Origin: Granulosicoccus sp.
Lineage (GTDB): Bacteria; Pseudomonadota; Gammaproteobacteria; Granulosicoccales; Granulosicoccaceae
Direction of reading: 5' to 3'
DNA length: 64,000 bases
Assembly: GCA_047634635.1 (NCBI GenBank)
Contig: JBLIIE010000003.1
Coordinates: 4,810-68,809 of the forward strand
In this document: positions 41,212-64,000 of the stretch, piece after piece
Layout of the letters: each line of letters opens with the position of its first letter
Position numbering within the stretch: the first letter of the stretch is position 1
Made by a program: the position numbers and the translations under genes
Notes under the pieces: generated by a model
Told to the model about the DNA's origin: nothing
What the model saw: the letters and a program-made list of their open reading frames with translations, nothing else
Databases searched by the model: none

Positions 41212-42408
41212 TTATACCGCTGGTATCAAGTCTAACTGTTCAAAATCAAACGGTAGAGTAGATACTCGAGCAGTGGATACAGATCCATCAGCCATCAACA
41301 CCTCTATAGTTTCCTGACTGGCAAACGGCTCCTCAAGCATGGCTGTCGCCAGCTGTACTCGGTATCGAACCGAATAACATTGGGACCCAAGACAGCTTGT
41401 CAAATCACCTTGGCATGTAATGGCTTCTTCAGATGAGTATTTAGAGGCGTTTCGTTCGGCGTCTGAAACAAGGAATGGCCGCTCAGCCAAGGGCTTAGCT
41501 ACCTCTGAGCGTGGAAGAATTATGCCCATCAGACGCCTAGCGGGACCAGCCACCTGTTCAGCTCGCAACGCTTCATGCGAAAGTGAATCTAGATCTTTGT
41601 CGAGTGACACAAAACCACCCAGGCCCGCTTCGAGCACTGAATGCCGTCCATCCATATCATTGCCAAAAGCCAGGAGTCCGTTTTCAATCCGTTCGATGAT
41701 ATTGGGACAACCGGGCCGGACATTCAGATCCTCACCTTTTGCAAATAATTCATCGTACAAAGATTGACCCAAATCGATGTCATCGACATAGATTTCAAAT
41801 CCGCCCTGCTTACTCCAGCCAGAACGCGCCACAATAAACTTATGACCGCGATAGTTCATTCGAACATACCGAAAGAAACGAATATTCTTGACCTCATCTC
41901 CAAAGACGCGAGCCATAAGCTCTTCAGCCAATGGTCCCTGAACCGCCAACGGCCACACATCCGGTTCGTCAATCTGGACATCCAAGTTAGCCCCACGAGC
42001 TAACCCCTTCGCCCAAAGAATCACATCGGAATCTGAAATGGATAACCACCAATGATCATCAGCTAATCGTATGCCAACCGGGTCGTTTATCAATTTGCCT
42101 TTCTCATCAGCCAGTGGCAAGTAGACACAGCGGTCTAGTGCAACGCCTTCGACTGCCCTGGGAGTCATCCATTGAACGAGCCGAGTGGCATCAGGACCCT
42201 TGATACTGACTTGACGCTCAACAGCAACATCCCAAACCTGAACAGCTTCACTCAGATGCCAATAGTCCCGCTCAAAAGAATCAAATTCTGTTGCCAGCAG
42301 CATATGATTGTAAACGGTAAACGCTCTCGCTCCTTTCTCAATTGAGCGAGAGAAAAAAGGCGACTTTCTCAAGCGCCTGGACAATGCTAGATTGGGAGCG
42401 ATATACAT
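41212..42408 (-). CDS. dmdA: DMSP demethylase DmdA (GcvT family)
   Basis: SRRLRKSPF, TVYNHMLL, VQVWDVA.ERQVSI.GPDA, NDPV, LAVQGP, IRFFRY, ARSGWSKQGGFEIY and GCPN.IER.E.GLL..GNDM all match recalled DmdA sequences; the C-terminal domain is more divergent. Confidence 0.8.
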   Translation of the reverse strand: MYIAPNLALSRRLRKSPFFSRSIEKGARAFTVYNHMLLATEFDSFERDYWHLSEAVQVWDVAVERQVSIKGPDATRLVQWMTPRAVEGVALDRCVYLPLADEKGKLINDPVGIRLADDHWWLSISDSDVILWAKGLARGANLDVQIDEPDVWPLAVQGPLAEELMARVFGDEVKNIRFFRYVRMNYRGHKFIVARSGWSKQGGFEIYVDDIDLGQSLYDELFAKGEDLNVRPGCPNIIERIENGLLAFGNDMDGRHSVLEAGLGGFVSLDKDLDSLSHEALRAEQVAGPARRLMGIILPRSEVAKPLAERPFLVSDAERNASKYSSEEAITCQGDLTSCLGSQCYSVRYRVQLATAMLEEPFASQETIEVLMADGSVSTARVSTLPFDFEQLDLIPAV

Positions 42409-52599: not shown

Positions 52600-54741
52600 T
52601 CACAACAGATTTAAAACCTTAAGCGCAAAGGCCTGCTCAATAGCAACATCAACCAAGCTGGCATAGCGACCCGTCTCTCCAAAATGCCCCGAACTCATAT
52701 TAGTTTTCAATAAGAGTATTTGTTCATCACAGCGCATATGTCGGTGGCGTGCAACCCACTTGGCTGGTTCCCAATACGTGACTCTGGGATCAGACACCCC
52801 TGCTGTTACAAGCATTGGCGGATATTCGCGTGCCTGTACATTATCGTACGGTGAATACGACTTGATATCCAGATAAGCCTGCACGTCTTCTTTCGGGTTT
52901 CCCCATTGAGACCACTCACCCGGAGTCAATGGCAATGTGTCATCCAGCATGGTGTTCAGGACATCAACAAAGGGCACGTCTGCAACCGCACCACCCCATA
53001 AATCGCAAATCCGGTTTAGTGCCGCACCCACGAGCAATCCACCCGCAGAGCCACCCGCTATTACGATATTACCAGCCTTGGTATATTGCTCTTCCACCAA
53101 ATATTCACCCACAGCGATTAGGTCATCCATACTTTTCGGTTTCCCCCCGAATCGCGCAGCCTCATACCACGCGCGCCCCTTCTCCTGGCCACCGCGGACA
53201 TGCGCTATGACGTAGACAAATCCCCGATCAACTAGAGACAAGCGTGTTGTTCCAAATGAAGCAGGCGATGACGAACCGTAAGCGCCGTAAGCGCTCAACC
53301 AGCAAGGTGCAGAACCATCAATGGGTGTGTTTTTGTGATGCAAGATGGTTAACGGCACCATTTCACCATCAGATGATTTTGCGTAGCGACGAGCTACCTC
53401 ATAGTGTTCAGAATCATGACCACTGGGAATGTGATCTTCCTTGAGCAATTGCCGAGCAGCGGTAGGCATATGATACTTAAACGTCTGAGAAGGAGTTGCA
53501 GGTGACTCGTACTCAAATTGAAAGGTATCTTCATCAAATTCTACTAATGGATCGAGACTCAGAGCGAAAGCTTCTTCGGTGAACTCAATACGGTGGGTTT
53601 GCTTTTCTTCATTATGTCGATAACAAATACACGGCAGGGCGTTTTCTCTCTCCATCCACATCACCCAGTTTTTGTAGGCGTAATGATCAAGCACCATACG
53701 ACCAGGCTGATAAGGTAACCAATCTTGCCAGTGCTCTCTAGATGGTGTTTCGCAACTAGTCTCCATGATTTTGAAGTCTACAGCCTCGTCCGCATTAGTT
53801 CGAATCAGGAAGCGGCTACCCTGATGATCAACGCTGTACTCGATACCCTCAGCTCTAGGTTCAATGATTTGAGGAGCGCTGGTTATATCGCCTACCGGAA
53901 TAAACCAGACTTCACTTTCATCATTCATGTCGGATGATATAAATACGAAGTCTGCTGACACACTTGTCCAAACCGAACAGAAAAAACGTGAATCTGTCTC
54001 TTCGTAGACCAGAACATCACTTTGTGTTTCTGTTCCAAGTTCGTGTCGAAAAACCTGGCTGGGCCGATGATCATCGTCCACCCGCGTGTAAAACAAATAG
54101 CTCTCATTCCCCCAAGCTGCCGATTCTACATCGCAAATGGTGTCCTTATCTTCACCGTTGGCTAAATCGCGAATGAAGACGGTATACCGTTCTGAGCCCG
54201 TTGTATCTGCGCTCCAGGCAAGATGCGTATGTGCTGGACTGTATTCAACATCACCCGGATCAAAGTAGTCATGATCTGTTGCCTCTATATTAAAATCAAT
54301 AAGAAGCTGCAGCTCACTTTCATCAATGTGCGCATCTTCCATGGAACGGCTACTTCCATCGGTCGGGCTTGTCGTATCACCCAGAGAAACTTCGTATGAC
54401 ATACGTGGGCACCTCCAATAGCTCGGATGTTCTTCGTCACCCTGATAGCGTTCTACATAACTCCAAGGGCCATCGTGATCAGGAAGCGAGGTATCGTCCG
54501 CCTGAATACGTCCTTTCATTTCGGCAACCAATGAATCCTGCAAATCTTTAGTATCAGCCATGACAGACTCAAACCAGTCGTTCTCACTGTCAAGATAGTG
54601 CTTGATATCAGCAGGCAATCGAGATGGATCATCCACGCACTCCTGCCAGTTATCGGCTCGTAGCCAACCGTAATCATCACAGGTTTCAACGCCATGAATT
54701 TGCGATTCAACAGGTATGCGTTTGGCTATGGGTGGATTCAT
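52600..54741 (-). CDS. ptrB: Oligopeptidase B (S9A)
   Basis: DDYGWLR, beta-propeller region, AHVRGG, GGSAGG, DVPFVDV, DPRV.YWEPAKW.A and SGHFG. Confidence 0.92.
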   Translation of the reverse strand: MNPPIAKRIPVESQIHGVETCDDYGWLRADNWQECVDDPSRLPADIKHYLDSENDWFESVMADTKDLQDSLVAEMKGRIQADDTSLPDHDGPWSYVERYQGDEEHPSYWRCPRMSYEVSLGDTTSPTDGSSRSMEDAHIDESELQLLIDFNIEATDHDYFDPGDVEYSPAHTHLAWSADTTGSERYTVFIRDLANGEDKDTICDVESAAWGNESYLFYTRVDDDHRPSQVFRHELGTETQSDVLVYEETDSRFFCSVWTSVSADFVFISSDMNDESEVWFIPVGDITSAPQIIEPRAEGIEYSVDHQGSRFLIRTNADEAVDFKIMETSCETPSREHWQDWLPYQPGRMVLDHYAYKNWVMWMERENALPCICYRHNEEKQTHRIEFTEEAFALSLDPLVEFDEDTFQFEYESPATPSQTFKYHMPTAARQLLKEDHIPSGHDSEHYEVARRYAKSSDGEMVPLTILHHKNTPIDGSAPCWLSAYGAYGSSSPASFGTTRLSLVDRGFVYVIAHVRGGQEKGRAWYEAARFGGKPKSMDDLIAVGEYLVEEQYTKAGNIVIAGGSAGGLLVGAALNRICDLWGGAVADVPFVDVLNTMLDDTLPLTPGEWSQWGNPKEDVQAYLDIKSYSPYDNVQAREYPPMLVTAGVSDPRVTYWEPAKWVARHRHMRCDEQILLLKTNMSSGHFGETGRYASLVDVAIEQAFALKVLNLL

Positions 54742-56243
54742 GTAAGGACCAGTGCGTTGCCAACCAGATGATGCAAACTGGTGACGTGCACGCTAGAGAG
54801 ATTATGGTGCGGTAATACGGAGGACAACTGCGTTTTGCAAATTGCACAAATAGCCACAAGATGGGTGACCTGGTCGGAAGTGACAACAGCTTGTAGCGCT
54901 TGTGCACGCGGAAGCGCCCCTTTTACTCGAAGGTCTATTAGATCGTCTGTTAACAGACCACCACCACCACCACAACAAAAAGTAGCCTGCCCGATAGTAT
55001 CTTTGCTCATATCCACAAGTTTGGGCACACTGGCCGCTAATAGTGCACGCGGTATCGTGAATTGTCCGCCAGGATCATCACCCATTCCAGCGCCACGCGC
55101 CACATTACACGAATCATGGTACGTCACCACAATGCCCTTGTTAGCTGAAGGATCAAGTTTGATGACACCTTGTGTCAATAGTTGATGAGTGACTTCACAG
55201 ATATGTTCTGCTCGAGGATGAGCTTTATCGAGAAATTCCAATGGCCCAATTAGTTCATCCAGAAAGCTGTAAGCCACTCGCCAGGCATGACCACATTCTC
55301 CAATAACAATTCTGTTTACACCGAGCCCCATGGCCGCGTGCTTGATGCGTAATGCTATCTCGCGCATGTGATCGTGCTGCCCTGTGAAGAGACCGAAATT
55401 CGCCGCCTCTGAAGCTTCAGAACTGAAGGTCCAGCGAATACCCGCCATGTGCAACACCTTTGCATAGCCGATCAATCCATCAACATGCGGCTCTGCAAAG
55501 AAATCTGCAGAAGGTGTAACCACCAACATATCTGCTGACTCATCGTCCAGTGGTAGCCGGACGTGGATACCGGTGTCTTCAAGGATGTCCTCTTCCAGAT
55601 TTTCAAGAACATCTGCAAGTGCGCGTGGTTTCATTCCCAGGTTGTTACCAATAGTCTTAACTTTAGTGATGATTTCCTGAGAGTATTGTTGTCCAAGACC
55701 GACACTTGCCAATATTTCCCTACCAGCCATAGTGACCTCGGACGTATCGATACCCTTCGGGCAGTAGACGGTGCATCGGCGACATTCTGAACATTGATGA
55801 AAATAGGTATACCAGTCTTGCAGTAACTGCTTATCCAGTTTCCGTGCACCTACTAACCAGGGAAACACTCTCCCCACGAGGGTAAAGTAGCGCCGGTAGA
55901 CCGAACGCATTAAATCCTGACGAGCAACAGGCATGTTTTTAGGATCATGTGTTCCCAGAAAATAATGGCACTTGTCAGTACAGGCTCCACACTTGGTGCA
56001 TGTGTCGAGAAATACCCGTAAGCCACGACGTTCCTTTACCAACTGACCCAGGCGCTCAATTGCCTTGTCATGCCAATCTTCAACCAACGTGCCAGGAAGT
56101 CCCAGCGATTCTTGCACAACAGGTTCAGCCACCGCCGTATGACTCGTGGCCATGGCTCCTTCCTGTATCAAAGGAATAACACGATAGCGTCCGACGACGC
56201 TGGGCAGTTTCGAAAAGTCAGTACCAGAGGGAGTGTCACTCAC
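54738..56243 (-). CDS. dsrK: DsrK Fe-S/CCG protein, sulfur-oxidiser type
   Basis: CTKCGACTDKCHYFLGT.DPKNMPVARQDLMR, FHQCSECRRC..YCP.GIDT, TPSADFFAEPHVDGLIGYAKV, GECGHAWR, HDSCNVAR, FCCGGGGG and AICAICK; closely resembles recalled Allochromatium-type DsrK. Confidence 0.92.
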   Translation of the reverse strand: MSDTPSGTDFSKLPSVVGRYRVIPLIQEGAMATSHTAVAEPVVQESLGLPGTLVEDWHDKAIERLGQLVKERRGLRVFLDTCTKCGACTDKCHYFLGTHDPKNMPVARQDLMRSVYRRYFTLVGRVFPWLVGARKLDKQLLQDWYTYFHQCSECRRCTVYCPKGIDTSEVTMAGREILASVGLGQQYSQEIITKVKTIGNNLGMKPRALADVLENLEEDILEDTGIHVRLPLDDESADMLVVTPSADFFAEPHVDGLIGYAKVLHMAGIRWTFSSEASEAANFGLFTGQHDHMREIALRIKHAAMGLGVNRIVIGECGHAWRVAYSFLDELIGPLEFLDKAHPRAEHICEVTHQLLTQGVIKLDPSANKGIVVTYHDSCNVARGAGMGDDPGGQFTIPRALLAASVPKLVDMSKDTIGQATFCCGGGGGLLTDDLIDLRVKGALPRAQALQAVVTSDQVTHLVAICAICKTQLSSVLPHHNLSSVHVTSLHHLVGNALVLT

Positions 56244-56959
56244 GATGATGACGACTCATCGTTTGAACCTGTTCGGATTTTAGCGGCTGTATCGCGTTGA
56301 TTAAGTGTAGGACTGAAAAGAATCCCAAGTCCATGTAGCAATTTGCTAACAGGGAACACTATGATAAGTACAAGAACAAGTAGTAAATGAATCAACAGAA
56401 CGGCGCTGTCAGGAAGAGGCTGCCAATGGAATGTCATTGCACCTCGAAAAAACTGACCAACCGCAAAGGTATCCACTGGCCAGAGACGTTTTAAACATAA
56501 ACCTGAAACCGCAATAGCGATAAGTAATAACAAATGTAGGTAATCACTTGGGGCTGATATGTACCGCAGTCTGTCTACAAGAACTCTGCGAGCGAGCAAT
56601 ATGCTCAACCCAAAAACCATAGCGCCTGCAGCCCAGCCGCTCCATATTATAAAGGGTATAATTACAGGTGGAAGCTGCTCAAAAATAAAGCGCGCGTGCA
56701 TGATTAAAACAAACAACAACCCATAGTGAAACAATATACTCGCCAGCCAGGTTGTTTTACTCGCCCGCAAAAGAGCACGAAATGCGAATAACTCAAGCGT
56801 CAGTCTGCCGATAACACCCAAATGTGTTTTGGGTGCAGGTGTTAACGGAATTGGCAAAGGTGATGGCGTTTTGGCCCACTGTAACAATCTGTAGCTGGTA
56901 GCCACGAGAGCCCAAAGCAACGCAACAGTAAAACCAATGCCCAGAAGCACGTCAGACAC
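56240..56959 (-). CDS. dsrM: DsrM di-heme b membrane protein, sulfur-oxidiser type
   Basis: TPSPL.IP.TPAP, LFH...HARF, RR...DR.RYIS.PSD, H.LLV..L...FP.SKLLH..G..FSPT.NQ.D. Start set at GTG 56959, which overlaps the dsrC stop, rather than 57061. Confidence 0.88.
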   Translation of the reverse strand: MSDVLLGIGFTVALLWALVATSYRLLQWAKTPSPLPIPLTPAPKTHLGVIGRLTLELFAFRALLRASKTTWLASILFHYGLLFVLIMHARFIFEQLPPVIIPFIIWSGWAAGAMVFGLSILLARRVLVDRLRYISAPSDYLHLLLLIAIAVSGLCLKRLWPVDTFAVGQFFRGAMTFHWQPLPDSAVLLIHLLLVLVLIIVFPVSKLLHGLGILFSPTLNQRDTAAKIRTGSNDESSSS

Positions 56960-57311
56960 AGCCAGTGGGTTTGGGAAGCCCTGCATATCGACAGGCCTGC
57001 TTGGCAGGACCTCTTGGAAACAGTTCGTACAGGTACTTACTATTCCCTTTTTCTTGACCAAACCGTTTGCCGATCTGTTTGGTCAGAATTCGGATCGCTG
57101 GTGCTATTTCGTAATTCTCGTAGTATTCCTGCAGAAAACCAATGACTTCCCAGTGGGCCTCACTTAATTCGATGGAGTCAGCCTTTGCCAGCTCGATAGC
57201 AAGCTCACGCGTCCAGTCAGATCGACTCTTCAAATAGCCTTCGTGATCTTTGTCCAGAGAATCGATCAGTTCACTCATAGAAAAATCAGACACCGGTAGT
57301 GAAAAAGTCAT
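56952..57311 (-). CDS. dsrC: DsrC sulfur-carrier protein with both conserved cysteines
   Basis: D.EGYL, HWEVI.FL.EYY, APAIR.LTK and EKGNSKYLY.LFP.GPAKQACRYAGLPKPTGCV (Cys-X10-Cys). Start is 57311 or 57278. Confidence 0.9.
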   Translation of the reverse strand: MTFSLPVSDFSMSELIDSLDKDHEGYLKSRSDWTRELAIELAKADSIELSEAHWEVIGFLQEYYENYEIAPAIRILTKQIGKRFGQEKGNSKYLYELFPRGPAKQACRYAGLPKPTGCV

Positions 57312-57326
57312 TTCTTGGAACCTATT

Positions 57327-57686
57327 CTAAAGGGCAAGCTTGAGCAAAACATCAACCAACTCATCAGATGTACCCAGGTAATCGGTAATGTGAATATCCA
57401 TATTCGGGTATTCGACTTGTTTAATTGCCACCTGCTCGGGTATGTCGTCAGCCACATGGGCCCCGCGTGCCAGAAAGTACGGTACAACACTTACACTGGT
57501 CGCCCCTTTCTCTACACAAGTTTGAATCCCATTGGGTATCAAAGGATCGCAAAGTTCCAGAAACGCATATTCAACTATATCGAATCGAGACTTGGCTTTC
57601 GTCGCCAAACGCTCGGTTAAGCGTGCAATTTCAGCATTGGATTCAGCACGACGGCTGCCGTGCGCGACTAGCAGAATAGCTTTCAT
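57327..57686 (-). CDS. cbiX: Short CbiX/SirB sirohydrochlorin chelatase
   Basis: LLVAHGSRR..SN, AFLEL..P and VPYFL..G.HV..DIP. Confidence 0.88.
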   Translation of the reverse strand: MKAILLVAHGSRRAESNAEIARLTERLATKAKSRFDIVEYAFLELCDPLIPNGIQTCVEKGATSVSVVPYFLARGAHVADDIPEQVAIKQVEYPNMDIHITDYLGTSDELVDVLLKLAL

Positions 57687-59045
57687 TTACGACTCTTCAG
57701 CTTTCATTTGATTTATAGCCTCGTCTCGCAGTTCTGACACTGCATTAGCATGACCATCAAAACCTTCATACGTAGCAAAACGATGTGTGTGCGGAGCCAT
57801 TTCAGCGTAACCAGTTGCGGTCATGTGGCCCACTGAGCACGTTTTCATGAAATCGTGCACTCCTAGCGGTGAATGAGTACGAGCAGCCGCAGATGTTGGC
57901 AACACACAGTTAGGGCCCATCATGTAGTTGGCGATGGAACCCGCAGCATGCTCTCCCAACAGAATTTCGCTGGCATTGCGAATATGCGCTAAATGCTCAT
58001 AGGGAGTTTTCGATAACACCTGACAATGTTCCGGCGCATAGTCGTTGATGAACGCATAGGCCTCTGCTACGTTTGACGCTAACACTATTCCTCCACGCTG
58101 ACCACTTAGTACGGTGGATGAATAACCGGCAAGCGTTTCATTTTGCCGGTCCCAGTACTGCGGAATTGCCTTGCGAACAGCTTCTGCCAATTGCCGATCC
58201 CAAGTGACCAGAAATGAGCTGCTATCCGGACCATGTTCGGATTCAATAGTCATATCCAGTGCCGCTATGAGCGGATTGGCAGACTCATCAGCAAGAATAA
58301 TGGTTTCGCTGGGCCCAGCGGGCAAACCCGGATCAATACGACCTGCGAGTACACGCTTAGCAGCGACTAGCCAAGGGCTACCCGGGCCCACAATCTTAAA
58401 ACAGCGAGGAACGCTGGCCGTTCCGTAAGCAGCGGCTGCAACAGCCTGCGCGCCACCCGCCTTGAAAACCTGTTCAACACCCGCAAGCCTAGCAGCGACT
58501 AATGTTGCTGGATCGACGTGACCATCAGGACCCGGAGGGGTGAGAATAATAGGCTGCGGTACGCCCGCTACTGATGCCGGAATGGCTGTCATAAGAGTAA
58601 CTGAAGGGAAAGATCCCTTCCCTCTAGGTGAATAACACGCCACCGAATCAATAGGTGTGGCTCTCTCGCCCACCAAAACACCCGGGCGAATTTCCTTCAT
58701 CCACATTTCTGGAGGTCGCTGAGCCTCATGGAAGCGACGAATATTGTCCGCCGAATATTCCAGCGTCTCAATCATTGCCCGGTCTATTTTGTCGAAGGCC
58801 TTGTCGATATCGGACTTTGAAGCCGCAATAAATTCAGCTCTTAGGCTGGCAGCACCGTCAAATTCGCGCCCAAAACGTGCAAGCGCTTCATCACCATCAT
58901 TACGAACAGCTTCAATAATAGGACGGACACCGTTTATAAAGGTATCCAGATCGTCCTCAGCCCGGCTCAGGAGCTGTTCTCGCTCTGTAACGGTGAGTTG
59001 GGCCAGATCGTGTAAAGCCACCTCAGGATATTGCCGAACAGTCAT
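57687..59045 (-). CDS. Histidinol dehydrogenase homologue (HisD family) with an atypical active site
   Basis: GGAQAVAA..YGT, KIVGPG, AGPSE, EHGPDS and APEH are present; variant motifs are IESEH, IANY and GPNCVLPT. Confidence 0.88.
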   Translation of the reverse strand: MTVRQYPEVALHDLAQLTVTEREQLLSRAEDDLDTFINGVRPIIEAVRNDGDEALARFGREFDGAASLRAEFIAASKSDIDKAFDKIDRAMIETLEYSADNIRRFHEAQRPPEMWMKEIRPGVLVGERATPIDSVACYSPRGKGSFPSVTLMTAIPASVAGVPQPIILTPPGPDGHVDPATLVAARLAGVEQVFKAGGAQAVAAAAYGTASVPRCFKIVGPGSPWLVAAKRVLAGRIDPGLPAGPSETIILADESANPLIAALDMTIESEHGPDSSSFLVTWDRQLAEAVRKAIPQYWDRQNETLAGYSSTVLSGQRGGIVLASNVAEAYAFINDYAPEHCQVLSKTPYEHLAHIRNASEILLGEHAAGSIANYMMGPNCVLPTSAAARTHSPLGVHDFMKTCSVGHMTATGYAEMAPHTHRFATYEGFDGHANAVSELRDEAINQMKAEES

Positions 59046-59253
59046 AGATAACCATTTAAAAACGGTGGTTGATTAACATCCACCCGTACCTCCAGTATAC
59101 CTTTTCGCTATGGCCAATATTCCCGATTCGCTTAGGCATTAGCGAGAAGACAGTTGCAACGTTATTTCACCATATATTCGCGTGCTAACATCCGAATGAA
59201 CTGACTATCACTCCATAAACCGCACAACAGATCTCATTTCCGACACCTGATCC

Positions 59254-60582
59254 ATGCCCACTGACATAAACACCTCTGCCTCGATACCCACTTCTACAGA
59301 TAAGGTCGAGCACACCACAAGCTACTATGCAGCTTCAGCCAATAAGAGCCCAGAGCGAGAATGGCTAAATGATTCGATTGATGTCGATGTCTGCGTGATT
59401 GGTGGGGGATTCAGCGGGTTATCCGCTGCCTTGCATCTAACCGCTCAAGGTAGACATGTCACCCTCCTGGAGGGCGCCAAAATCGGCTGGGGGGCATCTG
59501 GTAGAAATGGCGGCCAACTGATACACGGACTGAATGCAAGTTTAAACACCGTCGGCAAACGCTACGGGCAGGAAGCAGCCAATTTTATGGGCAGCCTCGT
59601 TCAGGAAGGTGCTAGCGTCATTCGTCAGTTCGTTAAAGACCACAGCATTGAATGTGATCTAAAACAGGGGAGTATTTTTGCCGCATTCAACGCTCGCCAA
59701 ATGCGCGAGCTTGAAGCTAAGCAAGTCTTGTGGCGAAAGCACGGCATGGACGAACATGAAATGTTGGACAAAAACAGCATAAAAAATCACGTTGGCACCG
59801 ATCAATACCTGGGTGGCATGCTGGATCACTCCGGTGGACATATTCACCCTCTTAATCTGGCACTGGGTGAGGCAGCTGCACTCGAAAAGCTTGGAGGCAA
59901 GATCTACGAGCAATCGAGGGTGACTCGCGTAGATTCCATTGAAGACAAACCTGTGGTAATCACTGCCAACGGTTCTGTCCGGTGCGAAACATTGGTGGTC
60001 TGTGGCAATGCTTATTTGGGCAAAAGCGTTCCAACCCTTAAATCTCGGGTAATGCCTGTGTCAACTCAGATGATGGCAACAGAGCCACTGTCCGACGAAT
60101 TAGCGAATGCGTTGCTGCCCACTGACAACTCAGTCGAAGATGTTCGCTACATTCTGGACTACTATCGTTTATCAGCCGATAAGCGCTTATTGTGGGGCGG
60201 TGGCACCGTTTACGGCGGCACTGATCCCAGCGACGTCGTCACCAAATTACGCCCTAATATGGAAAAAGTGTTTCCAGAATTGTGCGGGGTAAAAATCTCC
60301 CATGCCTGGAGTGGAAATTTTGCGTTGACCTTCACCCGCGTTCCGTTACTAGGCAAACTCGGCCCAGACACTTTCTATGCAATGGGCTATAGCGGTCATG
60401 GCGTAACTGGCAGCCACCTATTCGGCAAATTACTTGCAGAAGCGATAGACGGAAAAACAGATCGATTTGATCGCTTCGCTGCTCTGCCCTGGTATCCATT
60501 CCCGGGTGGACAACGATTTAGAGCGCCTTATTCGACAGTAGGCTCTTGGTGGTATGGCATGCGCGACGCGCTTGGAGTATGA
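59254..60582 (+). CDS. FAD-dependent oxidoreductase, PuuB/OrdL (gamma-glutamylputrescine oxidase) family
   Basis: SYYAASAN, GGGFSGL, GWGASGRNGGQ, HPLNLALGEA, DYYRLS.D and GYSGHGV. Confidence 0.9.
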   Translation: MPTDINTSASIPTSTDKVEHTTSYYAASANKSPEREWLNDSIDVDVCVIGGGFSGLSAALHLTAQGRHVTLLEGAKIGWGASGRNGGQLIHGLNASLNTVGKRYGQEAANFMGSLVQEGASVIRQFVKDHSIECDLKQGSIFAAFNARQMRELEAKQVLWRKHGMDEHEMLDKNSIKNHVGTDQYLGGMLDHSGGHIHPLNLALGEAAALEKLGGKIYEQSRVTRVDSIEDKPVVITANGSVRCETLVVCGNAYLGKSVPTLKSRVMPVSTQMMATEPLSDELANALLPTDNSVEDVRYILDYYRLSADKRLLWGGGTVYGGTDPSDVVTKLRPNMEKVFPELCGVKISHAWSGNFALTFTRVPLLGKLGPDTFYAMGYSGHGVTGSHLFGKLLAEAIDGKTDRFDRFAALPWYPFPGGQRFRAPYSTVGSWWYGMRDALGV

Positions 60583-60591
60583 GAATTACCT

Positions 60592-61332
60592 ATGATTTCT
60601 TCTGAAGACACACCGAAAGCTCGCATTCGGCTAGGCGTACTACAAGCCGGAAGAGTTCCGGATGAAATGGCGGATCAACACGCCGACTATGATCAACTTT
60701 TCGTCGATCTACTCGGCGCCAACGCGTTTGATTATCGTCATTGGGCAGTACTTGACGGGAAATTTCCAAGCAGCACGGCCGACGCCGATGCGTGGTTAAT
60801 TACTGGCTCACGATTTGGCACTTATGAGGATCACGATTGGATTCCACCCCTGGAGAAATTTATCCGTGAAGTCTTTGCTGCAGATCAGCCCATGGTTGGT
60901 ATTTGTTTTGGCCACCAGATTATTGCCCAAGCTATGGGTGGACGCGTCGAAAAATTCTCAGACGGTTGGTCTGTAGGGCGTGTTGAGTACAACCTTGATA
61001 AATCTGTTTTCGGCACTGGATCCTCATCAACCTCTGATCAAACCGCCTTACTGGCTTTCCATCAGGATCAGGTCGTTCAAGCACCCGAATCATCAATCAC
61101 CGTGGGCAGTACGGATTTCTGCCAACACGCAGCGCTCCTTTATGGGAATCGTGCATTGACCCTACAGCCCCATCCCGAATTCTATTCTGATTTTATCGAC
61201 GGTCTGCTGGTTGCGCGTCGCGCTATACTGCCCCCAGCAATCATTGACAACGCGGCCGAAACACTTGCGCTACCCATTGTTCGCGAATCTATCGCAAATA
61301 CGATCCGTAAATTTCTCAAGCGAGACTTATGA
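60592..61332 (+). CDS. Class I glutamine amidotransferase
   Basis: ITGS, GICFGHQ (nucleophile Cys), HQDQV and QPHPEF. Confidence 0.9.
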   Translation: MISSEDTPKARIRLGVLQAGRVPDEMADQHADYDQLFVDLLGANAFDYRHWAVLDGKFPSSTADADAWLITGSRFGTYEDHDWIPPLEKFIREVFAADQPMVGICFGHQIIAQAMGGRVEKFSDGWSVGRVEYNLDKSVFGTGSSSTSDQTALLAFHQDQVVQAPESSITVGSTDFCQHAALLYGNRALTLQPHPEFYSDFIDGLLVARRAILPPAIIDNAAETLALPIVRESIANTIRKFLKRDL

Positions 61333-62699
61333 GTAATCAATCGAAGTGGATGGAACAACTTCCAAATGCTTTCCATACTTGGCTTAATGGTCGACGAGTT
61401 GATGACGTAGAATGTGTCATTGCAGACATTGCAGGCACAGCACGCGGCAAAGCCATGCCGGCACGCAAATTTGCGAAAGCAGATGCCATGTATTTACCCA
61501 CGTCCATTTTCTATCAAACCATAACAGGTGAATACGTCGATCTGGACGACATGGAAGATCAATGGACAGAATCTGATCTAATCCTCACTCCCGACTACTC
61601 AGCTGCTACTGCAGTTCCGTGGTCCGATGACGTGACTCTGCAAGTTGTACACGACATAACGCATCAGGACGGAAGTCCTGTTGGCATGGCGCCAAGAAAC
61701 GTATTAAAGCGCGTTGTCGATCTTTACCATGCCAGCGGGTGGCAACCCGTAGTTGCACCAGAGTTGGAATTTTATCTAACCAAGCCAAACATCGATCCAA
61801 ACCTGCCGATAGAACCGCCTATTGGACGCACAGGTCGGCAGGGTATAGCAAAGCAGGCATATTCCATGAGCGCTGTGGAAGAATATGGACCTGTCATTGA
61901 TGACATCTACGACTTTGCTGAAGCTCAAGGGTTTGAAATAGACACGATCATTCAAGAAGGCGGTGCCGGACAGATTGAAATCAATTTGCAGCACGGCGAC
62001 CCAGTGCATTTAGCGGATCAAGTATTCTTCTACAAAAGACTAATACGTGAGGCAGCACTACGAAACAAATGTTTTGCCACCTTCATGGCAAAGCCAATGG
62101 AAGAACAACCCGGCAGTGCCATGCATATCCATCAAAGCGTTATTCGCACCTCTGATGGTCGCAACCTGTTCAATACTGAAGACGATAAACCCACTGATTT
62201 GTTTTACGGCTTTATTGCTGGCCAACAAACGCTGATTCCAGATATTCTTTGCATACTGGCTCCCTACGTAAACTCCTACAGACGTTTTCGGCGTGATGAC
62301 TCCGCTCCCATTAATCTTGAGTGGGGCTTTGATAATCGTACAACAGGCATACGTGTACCCTTGTCCAGCCCTGAAAGTCGACGCGTAGAAAATCGTGTTG
62401 TCGGTATGGATTGCAACCCTTACCTTGCCATCGCGGCAAGCCTTGCTTGCGGGTTGATCGGCATGAAAAACAAAATGCAACCAAGGGATGCCGTTACCAG
62501 TGACGCTTATTCACTACCTCATGATCTTCCGATAGATCTAAGCAGAGCGCTCGATTTATTCAACGACAGCCCTAATATCACTGACGTCTTAGGCAAAGAT
62601 TTCTGCACCCTGTATAGCGCCATTAAACGACAGGAGTCTGATGCGTTCTTACAGGTTATAAGCCCTTGGGAACGAGAACATTTACTGCTGAACGTCTAG
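61329..62699 (+). CDS. Glutamine synthetase-like gamma-glutamyl-amine ligase (PuuA/SpuI-like)
   Basis: DIAG.ARGK, APELEFYL, EGG.GQIEIN, FMAKP...PGSAMH.H.S, WG.DNRT and R.ENR..G.D.NPYL; ATGA overlap with the upstream gene. Confidence 0.9.
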   Translation: MSNQSKWMEQLPNAFHTWLNGRRVDDVECVIADIAGTARGKAMPARKFAKADAMYLPTSIFYQTITGEYVDLDDMEDQWTESDLILTPDYSAATAVPWSDDVTLQVVHDITHQDGSPVGMAPRNVLKRVVDLYHASGWQPVVAPELEFYLTKPNIDPNLPIEPPIGRTGRQGIAKQAYSMSAVEEYGPVIDDIYDFAEAQGFEIDTIIQEGGAGQIEINLQHGDPVHLADQVFFYKRLIREAALRNKCFATFMAKPMEEQPGSAMHIHQSVIRTSDGRNLFNTEDDKPTDLFYGFIAGQQTLIPDILCILAPYVNSYRRFRRDDSAPINLEWGFDNRTTGIRVPLSSPESRRVENRVVGMDCNPYLAIAASLACGLIGMKNKMQPRDAVTSDAYSLPHDLPIDLSRALDLFNDSPNITDVLGKDFCTLYSAIKRQESDAFLQVISPWEREHLLLNV

Positions 62700-62717
62700 A
62701 GTGATTTTACTGCAAGT

Positions 62718-64000
62718 ATGAAGCTACTTCACGCGAATGACCATCTGGGAAAACACGCACCTTCGTGGTACAAAGCCACTTGCCCGATAGAGGACCGCAC
62801 CACACTTAGCCGCAACGCTACTTTTGATGTATGCGTGATTGGTGCTGGTTTCACCGGTCTATCCACAGCCTTACATCTCGCTGAGAATAGACGCTCAGTT
62901 GCTGTTCTGGATGCTCATCGAGTGGGCTGGGGCGCCTCAGGACGCAATGGTGGGCAACTTGGCACGGGCTTCAATCAGGATCAAATTGAGTTGACGGCAC
63001 TTTTAGGTGAACACCGTGCTCACCAATTATGGAAAATAGCTGAAGATGCCAAAGCGTTAATACACACACGCTGCAAGCAATACGATATCAATATTGACTA
63101 TGAGCCTGGCATAGTCACGGCTTTGCACAAACCCAGGTTCGTTCGCCCAGCCCATGAGTACTGTGAATATTTAGCGACTAATTATCAGTACCATGAATTG
63201 CAGCCACTGACAAAACAGACGATTCGACATCGCATTGCTAGTGACGACTATTTCGGTGGAGCCGTCGATCATGGCGCAGGCCACATACACCCTTTGAAAC
63301 TAGCAAGTGGGTTAGCAAACGCTTGCGAAAAAAACGGTGCCATTATCCACGAAAGAAGCGAAGTTATCCGTATAGATACACTTCCACGTGCCGGTGGCTA
63401 TCGGGTTGTAACAACGCAAGGTAGCGTTGTATGTGAAAAAATTGTTATCGCGACCAATGGCTACATAGACAATCTAAAACCAGTAGTTAACCGATGGATC
63501 ATGCCCATCAATAATTTTATTGTAGTCACTGAACCATTGGGATCCCTGGCGGATGAGATTTTACCGTGTAACGATGCTGTTGCAGATTCGCGATTTGTTG
63601 TTAACTATTATCGCCGCGTAGATGGCGATCGATTGTTATTCGGTGGAGGGGAAAACTACTCCTACCGCTTCCCTAAATCAATAAACAAGATAGTGCAGAG
63701 AGCCATGCTGGGTGTATACCCACAACTAAACAACGTTGCAATCGACTATGCTTGGGGTGGCACACTTGCAATAACACGCAGTAGGCTGCCATATACCTGT
63801 CAATTCGCCGACGGCATTTATGCCGCAGGAGGATTTTCTGGACATGGAGTCGCACTTGCAGGACTCTATGGTCAAGTTATTGCCGAGCATATTTGCGAAC
63901 ACTCAGATAGATTCAATTTACTCAGCGGACTTCCAGGAAAGCCTTTTCCAGGAGGTCGATCGGCCAGACCGGCACTGCTTGCTTTAGCCATGACTGGATA
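62718..64000 (+). CDS. Second PuuB/OrdL-family FAD oxidoreductase; runs off the window end
   Basis: Manual translation from ATG 62718: MKLLHANDHLGKHAPSWYKAT...DVCVIGAGFTGLSTALHLAE...GWGASGRNGGQ...HPLKL...GFSGHGVA. No stop before 64000. Confidence 0.9.
   Translation, partial: MKLLHANDHLGKHAPSWYKATCPIEDRTTLSRNATFDVCVIGAGFTGLSTALHLAENRRSVAVLDAHRVGWGASGRNGGQLGTGFNQDQIELTALLGEHRAHQLWKIAEDAKALIHTRCKQYDINIDYEPGIVTALHKPRFVRPAHEYCEYLATNYQYHELQPLTKQTIRHRIASDDYFGGAVDHGAGHIHPLKLASGLANACEKNGAIIHERSEVIRIDTLPRAGGYRVVTTQGSVVCEKIVIATNGYIDNLKPVVNRWIMPINNFIVVTEPLGSLADEILPCNDAVADSRFVVNYYRRVDGDRLLFGGGENYSYRFPKSINKIVQRAMLGVYPQLNNVAIDYAWGGTLAITRSRLPYTCQFADGIYAAGGFSGHGVALAGLYGQVIAEHICEHSDRFNLLSGLPGKPFPGGRSARPALLALAMTG

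Follow-up and report, generated by a model that had tools for sequence, protein, structure and literature searches.

Conserved dsrC-dsrM-dsrK-ptrB in Granulosicoccus and a probably deletion-derived junction with a variant hisD gene

Introduction

The closest described counterparts of the locus considered here are the DsrC/DsrMK(JOP) systems of sulfur oxidizers, exemplified by the dsrABEFHCMKLJOPNRS cluster of Allochromatium. The locus occupies positions 52,600 to 59,045 on the minus strand of a 64,000-nucleotide stretch of Granulosicoccus sp. DNA (contig JBLIIE010000003.1), which we call the window and whose positions are used throughout, and it consists of six open reading frames: a hisD-family gene, a small cbiX, a two-cysteine dsrC, dsrM, dsrK and ptrB, an S9 oligopeptidase gene. 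The encoded DsrK and DsrC are 59-64% and 55-70% identical to the sulfur-oxidizer proteins, and the iron-sulfur and CCG-domain cysteines, the four heme histidines, both DsrC cysteines and the dsrC-dsrM-dsrK gene order are all shared. In contrast to the sulfur-oxidizer clusters, the Granulosicoccus locus has no dsrAB, dsrEFH, dsrL, dsrJOP or dsrN around it, its dsrK is overlapped by an S9 peptidase gene, its DsrK sits on a long stem branch, and the descriptions of its host genus give it as aerobic and chemo- or photoheterotrophic.

A second point of comparison is the minimal DsrMK of some sulfite and sulfate reducers and archaea, a menaquinol:DsrC-trisulfide reductase (PMC10861901, PMC10504309). 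Like the Granulosicoccus module, it has two subunits, lacks DsrJOP and adjoins dsrC, and the chemistry on the DsrC arm is presumed to be the same. Those organisms, however, have a DsrMK of the reductive type and a DsrAB that makes the DsrC trisulfide, whereas the Granulosicoccus proteins belong to the oxidative type and DsrAB has not been seen with them.

The two upstream genes have relatives of another kind. The HisD family includes both the canonical histidinol dehydrogenases and HpsN, the NAD-dependent 3-dehydrogenase for 2,3-dihydroxypropanesulfonate (DHPS) from Cupriavidus pinatubonensis (PDB 8V35; PMC11382572), while CbiX belongs with the class II chelatases SirB, small CbiX(S) and CfbA. 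We propose, at a probability of roughly 0.6, that lineage-specific deletions brought the six-gene block together as a composite, in which the conserved core is an orphan dsrC-dsrM-dsrK-ptrB unit of the sulfur-oxidizer type and the hisD gene most likely encodes a histidinol dehydrogenase of a variant clade.

Organization and conservation of the dsrC-dsrM-dsrK-ptrB unit

A scan of species-representative genomes with DsrK gave 80 loci, which were mapped by tblastn using the window proteins and the Allochromatium dsr cluster as references. Seventeen Granulosicoccus loci carry dsrK, counting one with a frameshifted dsrM (L003), and their DsrK proteins are 67-97% identical. The order dsrC-dsrM-dsrK holds in 17 of 17, and ptrB comes directly next wherever the contig extends so far. 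In the sequence around these 17 loci, none of dsrA, B, E, F, H, L, J, O, P or N was found. All 66 loci from outside Granulosicoccus, at 59-64% DsrK identity, are classical dsrABEFHCMKL(J)OPN(R) clusters, with DsrO and DsrP present wherever the contig extends far enough, and a split arrangement occurs in 0 of the 66. One of the Granulosicoccus-like loci (L004, JBLHWG010000047.1) is titled Halioglobus sp.; its proteins at this locus share 81-97% identity with the window proteins, and it is probably a mis-binned Granulosicoccus contig.

Within the window, the core genes are all on the minus strand and tightly joined. The dsrC gene (56,952-57,311; PF04358, TIGR03342) encodes 119 residues when read from the first ATG. 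It is followed by dsrM (56,240-56,959), a NarI-fold gene for the di-heme cytochrome b membrane subunit (PF02665), whose reading frame would extend over 56,240-57,061 and encode 273 residues if read from the most upstream start codon, TTG. Next are dsrK (54,738-56,243), which encodes the 501-residue HdrD-like catalytic iron-sulfur subunit (NF045796, 521 bits; cutoff 400), and ptrB (52,600-54,741), which encodes a 713-residue S9A serine oligopeptidase (PF02897, PF00326). The dsrC stop codon TGA (56,954-56,952) overlaps the dsrM GTG at 56,959 by 8 nucleotides, dsrM and dsrK overlap as GTGA (56,243-56,240), and dsrK and ptrB overlap as ATGA (54,741-54,738). This geometry is kept in relatives: the dsrM GTG at -8 is found in 16 of 17 loci, against only 8 of 17 for a possible ATG start at 56,986 (35-nucleotide overlap), and by our gene calls the -4 overlap of dsrK and ptrB recurs in 13 of 14 loci in which both genes were called. 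Junctions this tight are usual within operons and statistically unremarkable.

The initial annotation had described these six tightly packed genes and their junctions from the window alone, and the sequence bears this out. The cbiX stop codon TAG (57,329-57,327) is indeed 15 nucleotides from the first in-frame dsrC ATG (57,311), but the start kept in relatives corresponds to Met12 of the window protein (ATG 57,278), so that dsrC probably encodes 108 residues and the cbiX-dsrC spacer is probably 48 nucleotides. The names given to the hisD-family, cbiX, dsrC, dsrM and dsrK genes stand, whereas the ptrB product does not reach the oligopeptidase B equivalog model (NF007511, 441 bits against a cutoff of 1313). 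Among the findings that would refute its reading, the initial annotation had named internal promoters or terminators that split the transcript. Promoter-like matches inside the block number 5 against 9.1 expected by shuffling, and terminator-like matches 6 against 7.1. Since both are at or below chance, the scan neither splits the transcript nor confirms a single one.

The ptrB product contains the motifs GGSAGG, GVSDPRV and SGHFG, consistent with a Ser/Asp/His triad. Its gene is coupled to the gene upstream in every case, whether this is dsrK or, in one relative, soxZ. No functional link between ptrB and the module was found beyond co-expression, and it is probably a passenger. The relative with soxZ is a Granulosicoccus metagenome-assembled genome (MAG) with a 4.9 Mb contig (L001), in which the slot reads cbiX-soxY-soxZ-ptrB without dsrCMK (L001 12,473-15,716). 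The SoxY protein has a twin-arginine-type signal and the C-terminus ...SGCGSE, and the soxZ stop abuts the ptrB start.

In the DsrK tree, the Granulosicoccus clade is monophyletic on a stem branch of 0.39 substitutions per site. With midpoint rooting, this long stem places the clade outside all sulfur oxidizers, and the tree does not resolve the donor lineage. The stem fits an altered selective regime following the loss of partner genes.

The alternative that survives best is that dsrCMK is not an orphan at all, and that dsrAB (with dsrEFH, dsrL and dsrN) lies elsewhere in the genome as part of an ordinary, split reverse-Dsr pathway of sulfur oxidation. DsrC, DsrM and DsrK are of the sulfur-oxidizer type and fully intact, as described below, and the Granulosicoccaceae include a sulfur oxidizer, Sulfuriflexus (cited in PMC9238374), both of which speak for this pathway. 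We nevertheless consider it unlikely. No sulfur-oxidizer locus is split, no other dsr gene surrounds any of the 17 Granulosicoccus loci, and the long stem branch of DsrK points to a shift in selective regime. According to their descriptions, isolates of Granulosicoccus are obligate aerobes that live chemoheterotrophically; kelp MAGs add phototrophy genes, and the published sulfur genes of the genus are those of assimilatory sulfate reduction, sox and dmdA (PMC9238374). We found no paper that names both Granulosicoccus and dsrC, and a large survey of Dsr proteins took in only genomes with DsrABCMK. From the local context and the published Granulosicoccus surveys (PMC9238374), we infer that dsrAB is absent from the genome.

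The HisD-family enzyme and the origin of the six-gene packing

The hisD-family gene (57,687-59,045, minus strand) encodes 452 residues and matches PF00815 (440 bits) and TIGR00069 (419 bits; cutoff 244). Its residues were mapped on solved HisD structures and on the 150 best 50%-identity cluster representatives, using E. coli numbering. It shares the fold family with canonical HisD (E. coli, PDB 1K75; Brucella, PDB 4G07) and retains the catalytic residues Glu326 and His327, as well as Glu414, along with the zinc ligands His262 and His419′. Unlike the canonical enzymes, to which it is ~36-45% identical, it lies outside a his operon, with no association with other histidine-biosynthesis genes at the Granulosicoccus locus, and it carries three substitutions, Gln259 to Glu268, Asp360 to Asn373 and His367 to Cys380. 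All 121 Granulosicoccus-type HisD sequences have these Glu, Asn and Cys residues. Among the 150 representatives, 103 are canonical (Q..D..H) and ~25-30 form an E..N..(A/C/S/H) group that is 36-71% identical to the query, and the clade signature E-H-E-H-N-[A/C/S]-E-H is widespread. The paired changes of Gln to Glu and Asp to Asn would be a compensated swap of zinc ligands, because one carboxylate and one amide ligand are kept.

The wider clade offers a clue to the substrate. Two of its representatives are HisD-IGPD fusions, with more fusions in KSB3 and Alicyclobacillus, and a search with one fusion protein returned the Glu/Asn signature in 115 of the other 119 proteins. On a Desulfobacterales contig, the variant hisD is preceded by genes for HAD-IGPD and a HisC-like aminotransferase, and on a Magnetococcus contig, HAD-IGPD and HisC-like genes lie 3.5 kb from it. 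These fusions and linkages, which involve earlier steps of histidine biosynthesis, speak for histidinol as the substrate of the clade, and the window gene most probably encodes a true histidinol dehydrogenase belonging to it. The HAD-IGPD proteins on the two contigs (L087 5,052-9,299, Desulfobacterales; L094 4,183-11,484, Magnetococcus) are unusually long, at 620-640 residues, and the L087 set sits beside a giant polyketide synthase/non-ribosomal peptide synthetase gene. A variant hisD with a long HAD-IGPD and a HisC-like gene may constitute a second "lower histidine pathway" set. The neighbors of five other HisDs of the clade (P0122, P0129, P0131, P0295 and P0354) are uninformative.

The initial annotation had suggested that an HpsN-like dehydrogenase and the DsrC/DsrMK set could make up an organosulfur catabolic or redox system. 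HpsN shares with the window protein the HisD-family fold and NAD-dependent four-electron oxidation. It is defined by a loop, G-R-Y-A/S-H, which carries the sulfonate-binding His126, and by the zinc ligands Gln248, His251, Asp352 and His411′, next to which Lys353 contacts the sulfonate (PMC11382572). In the window protein, the aligned loop reads R-G-K-G-S-F (G142-K-G-S-F146), while Glu268 replaces the Gln, and the Asp-Lys pair becomes Asn373 followed by Tyr. Solved histidinol dehydrogenases score 219-264 bits against this protein and solved DHPS dehydrogenases 170-203 bits. With neither the GRY[A/S]H motif nor the Asp-Lys pair, and with the lower scores against DHPS dehydrogenases, HpsN was rejected as its identity. 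Genes for hpsO/hpsP, suyAB or other steps of DHPS and sulfolactate metabolism were found neither among the larger window open reading frames (Pfam/NCBIfam) nor in the loci of relatives.

How hisD came to adjoin the core is suggested by its variable distance in relatives. Wherever a Granulosicoccus locus extends far enough, hisD is found upstream of dsrCMK, at a distance of 0 to 7,553 nucleotides. In the window, the hisD stop codon TAA (57,689-57,687) directly abuts the cbiX ATG (57,686) with a gap of 0 nucleotides, and the distance from hisD to the next gene is 0-4 nucleotides in the window, its close relatives (L004-L007), L014 and L039, ~120 nucleotides in L012 and L013, and ~500-840 nucleotides in L015, L008 and L009. 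Farther out, a phosphatase-family gene is interposed at a distance of 1.4 kb (L016), a gamma-glutamyltranspeptidase gene at 2.4 kb (L011), and genes for gamma-glutamyltranspeptidase, BenE, AbrB, an FMN reductase, SBP56 and others at 7.5 kb (L003). An opposite-strand phosphatase-family gene stands immediately upstream of cbiX in L001, L003 and L010 and is missing in the window, which indicates that the ancestral cbiX-dsrCMK-ptrB unit had an upstream region of its own. The SBP56-family gene of L003 (15,715-17,073), of the methanethiol-oxidase type, lies between hisD and cbiX with ferredoxin and lipocalin genes.

The cbiX gene is equally changeable. It occupies 57,327-57,686 (minus strand; PF01903, 102 bits) and encodes a single-domain, presumably homodimeric class II chelatase of 119 residues. 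Among solved structures, it matches a sirohydrochlorin ferrochelatase (6jv6/5zt7) best, its AHGS and HV..DIP motifs are kept in 13 of 13 copies, and it is probably a small sirohydrochlorin/siroheme ferrochelatase. The conserved histidine-containing motifs and PF01903 are shared with SirB, CbiX(S) and CfbA; unlike these enzymes, it is dispensable at the locus in four relatives. In the closest relative (L004), cbiX is absent and the hisD stop is almost directly followed by the dsrC ATG (L004 8,500-8,540). It is also absent in L014 and L039, and a 44-residue remnant lies between hisD and dsrC in L015 (8,768-8,899). Thus, cbiX is an optional member of the locus that is repeatedly being lost. As a speculation, this loss would fit a lower need for siroheme at the locus once DsrAB was gone.

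In deeper lineages, and in the nearest HisD relative outside the listed Granulosicoccus set (71% identity), hisD is followed instead by a gamma-glutamyltranspeptidase gene (L003 11,383-12,978; L011 6,911-8,500; L091 6,216-7,805), with a 4-nucleotide overlap in L003. Another relative from outside the set, at 57% identity, has unrelated neighbors, and the available flanks of a few kb contain no dsr gene in either case. The linkage of hisD to gamma-glutamyltranspeptidase is older than that to dsrCMK. The loose hisD...dsrCMK arrangement is therefore genus-wide synteny and not a conserved operon, and the variable distance, the interposed genes and the losses of cbiX together indicate that the six-gene packing is an end product of deletions. 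The initial annotation had allowed for this origin, which is now borne out by the loss of cbiX in the closest relative, its remnant in another, and the phosphatase gene missing here. A juxtaposition unique to this genome, which it had named as a refuting finding, is not what is seen, as the synteny spans the genus, but the operon it proposed is not conserved as such.

These comparisons also bear on whether the HisD-family enzyme oxidizes an organosulfur (or amino-alcohol) substrate, as HpsN or another dehydrogenase of the four-electron kind would, and forms one catabolic or redox system with DsrC and DsrMK. The 0-nucleotide gap to cbiX, the upstream position of hisD in every Granulosicoccus locus that reaches so far, the altered metal and substrate residues (E268, N373 and C380), a dmdA gene 10 kb away and the methanethiol-oxidase-family gene of L003 are what such a system would offer in its support. 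Against it are the absent HpsN motifs and the better scores of solved HisDs, the fusion or linkage of the clade to IGPD, HAD-IGPD and HisC-like genes in other phyla, an adjacency that varies from 0 to 7.5 kb with interposed genes, some on the opposite strand, the homologues at 71% and 57% identity without flanking dsr genes, and the coupling of hisD to gamma-glutamyltranspeptidase in deeper lineages. We regard a joint organosulfur system as quite improbable, and the proposal of the initial annotation is not upheld.

Integrity and selection of DsrC, DsrM and DsrK

Sequence comparison suggests that the core proteins are functional. DsrK contains two CX2CX2CX3C motifs and the CCG-domain cysteines, with 15 of 15 conserved cysteines in 16 of 16 aligned copies, and retains 173 of the 185 columns that are invariant or nearly so in sulfur oxidizers. 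In DsrM, which scores 119 against a cutoff of 300 with its equivalog model (NF038037), the four histidines invariant in sulfur oxidizers are present in 16 of 17 copies. The exception is L003, where the frameshift in dsrM comes from an assembly indel or marks a pseudogene; the high-GC assembly may hold indel errors. A 1389-residue DsrM-DsrK-PtrB "fusion" called at this locus (L003 19,658-21,386) is an artifact of the frameshift. The DsrC arm ends in ...QACRYAGLPKPTGCV, a close match to the arm of sulfur-oxidizer DsrC, and Cys107 and Cys118 (CysB and, ten residues on, the penultimate CysA) are found in 17 of 17 Granulosicoccus copies.

The ratio of nonsynonymous to synonymous substitution rates (dN/dS) is 0.02-0.14 for all six genes in pairs with unsaturated dS, and 0.025-0.08 for dsrK. 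In more distant pairs, dS is saturated and dN is still 0.08-0.4. Purifying selection thus acts on DsrC, DsrM and DsrK. Contigs from metatranscriptomes match hisD, cbiX and dsrK exactly or nearly, and one spans the dsrK/ptrB junction; this RNA evidence consists of two low-share metatranscriptomes and one run of unrecorded type, and provides fragments rather than a transcript map.

One could ask whether DsrC is instead mainly a TusE-type sulfur relay for tRNA 2-thiouridine synthesis, with DsrMK doing no more than recycling it. The two proteins share a fold and the penultimate cysteine, and the TusE model NF008562 matches the window DsrC with 127 bits. That score is below the cutoff of 191, however, and CysB, which defines a true DsrC, is invariant, while the identity to the in-cluster DsrC of sulfur oxidizers is 55-70% and no tusBCD genes occur near dsrC in the window or in the Granulosicoccus loci. 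A main role in tRNA thiolation is very improbable. Finally, that the dsrCMK genes have no function and are a disappearing remnant of an ancestral dsr cluster, as the missing flanks of the classical cluster, the decay of cbiX in some lineages, the soxYZ replacement in one relative and the L003 frameshift might suggest, is scarcely credible given selection data that already contradict it (dN/dS 0.02-0.14, with synonymous sites often saturated), cofactor ligands that are all kept in 16 species-level genomes, conserved overlap geometry, matching metatranscriptome fragments, and a frameshift that may be an indel error.

Proposed mechanism

In the deletion-made composite that we favor, hisD would once have been a separate upstream unit, joined to the operon when the intervening gene or genes were deleted. 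The ancestral operon would have been headed by cbiX, now repeatedly lost, and ptrB would be co-transcribed and translationally coupled with dsrK. The orphan DsrC and DsrMK would have been kept without DsrAB, DsrEFH, DsrL, DsrJOP and DsrN.

By analogy with the described DsrMK/DsrC chemistry (PMC10861901, PMC10504309), the non-cubane iron-sulfur site of DsrK may make or break a CysA-CysB trisulfide or disulfide on the DsrC arm, and the two hemes b of DsrM may pass electrons to or from the quinone pool. With this chemistry on its arm, DsrC would act as a quinone-linked cytoplasmic carrier of sulfane sulfur. In place of DsrAB, sulfurtransferases would supply the sulfur on DsrC, and the cycle could run in either direction, as quinol-driven release of sulfide or as electron donation to quinone. 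More specifically, and only tentatively, aerobic Granulosicoccus without DsrAB may run a stand-alone DsrC/DsrMK cycle, in which sulfane sulfur loaded on DsrC, for example from sulfide derived from dimethylsulfoniopropionate (DMSP) or methanethiol by way of sulfurtransferases, is processed by DsrMK against the quinone pool.

Several observations weigh against this composite and its orphan core. The changed zinc ligands and the cysteine in place of His367 may leave room for a different HisD substrate, and the presence of hisD within 7.5 kb upstream of dsrCMK throughout the genus is compatible with a loose functional link. The long DsrK stem might reflect a departure from the classical function. 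The absence of dsrAB, dsrEFH and dsrL covers the sequence around the loci only, and no sulfur donor to DsrC was identified. Transcript support is thin, since the matching contigs are of low depth and environmental, and carry-over of DNA is possible.

Neighboring genes and other features

A divergent intergenic region of 208 bp (59,046-59,253) separates hisD from a Puu-like cluster and presumably holds the promoter of the six genes in their present arrangement. The promoter scan reported no sigma-70 consensus match in this region, and a contig from run X25, whose library type is not recorded, spans 59,072-59,241. The divergent cluster itself (59,254-63,998, plus strand) encodes an FAD oxidase of the DAO family, a class-I glutamine amidotransferase, a glutamine-synthetase-like protein and a second FAD oxidase, and resembles the catabolism of gamma-glutamyl-amines of the Puu/Ipu type. 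It is syntenic with hisD throughout the genus, and genes for sucrose-phosphate synthase and phosphatase are interposed in some cases. At no point in the 64-kb window does an Rfam RNA family reach its gathering score.

On the other side of the block, an equivalog of the DMSP demethylase DmdA (41,212-42,408, minus strand; NF009133, 437.9 bits against a cutoff of 410) adjoins FadB-like and acyl-CoA dehydrogenase genes, ~10 kb from ptrB. Its nearness was considered as a functional link and set aside. The gene order between dmdA and ptrB is not kept in L001, and dmdA is thus treated as context only.

Most sequencing runs containing the locus are metagenomes from sea ice and marine sediment. HisD homologues at 74-95% identity that bear organism names are all from Granulosicoccus.

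Significance

The host genus is abundant and aerobic, and inhabits kelp, seagrass and sea ice. The best reading of the novelty at this locus is an orphan DsrC/DsrMK module of the oxidative type in an aerobic heterotroph, conserved, under selection and apparently expressed. No new organosulfonate pathway is opened by the locus. What the upstream gene contributes is the delimitation of a broad HisD clade with Glu/Asn in place of Gln/Asp as zinc ligands, which is useful for annotation and enzymology.

The locus may also explain a published annotation. The supplementary table of a kelp study lists NarI (K00374) without NarG or NarY in several Granulosicoccus MAGs (PMC9238374). This "narI" is probably the dsrM described here, in which case the dissimilatory nitrate reduction inferred from it may be an annotation artifact.

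If a stand-alone DsrC/DsrMK cycle does operate in Granulosicoccus, it would be a DsrAB-independent and oxygen-compatible use of the terminal Dsr module, one that a SoxYZ-type carrier would have replaced, in the same position, in a single lineage. DsrC and DsrMK count as marker proteins for Dsr-dependent dissimilatory sulfur metabolism. With dsrCMK conserved and no sulfite reductase genes nearby, a DsrAB-independent role is possible, and surveys based on marker genes may mis-assign the module.

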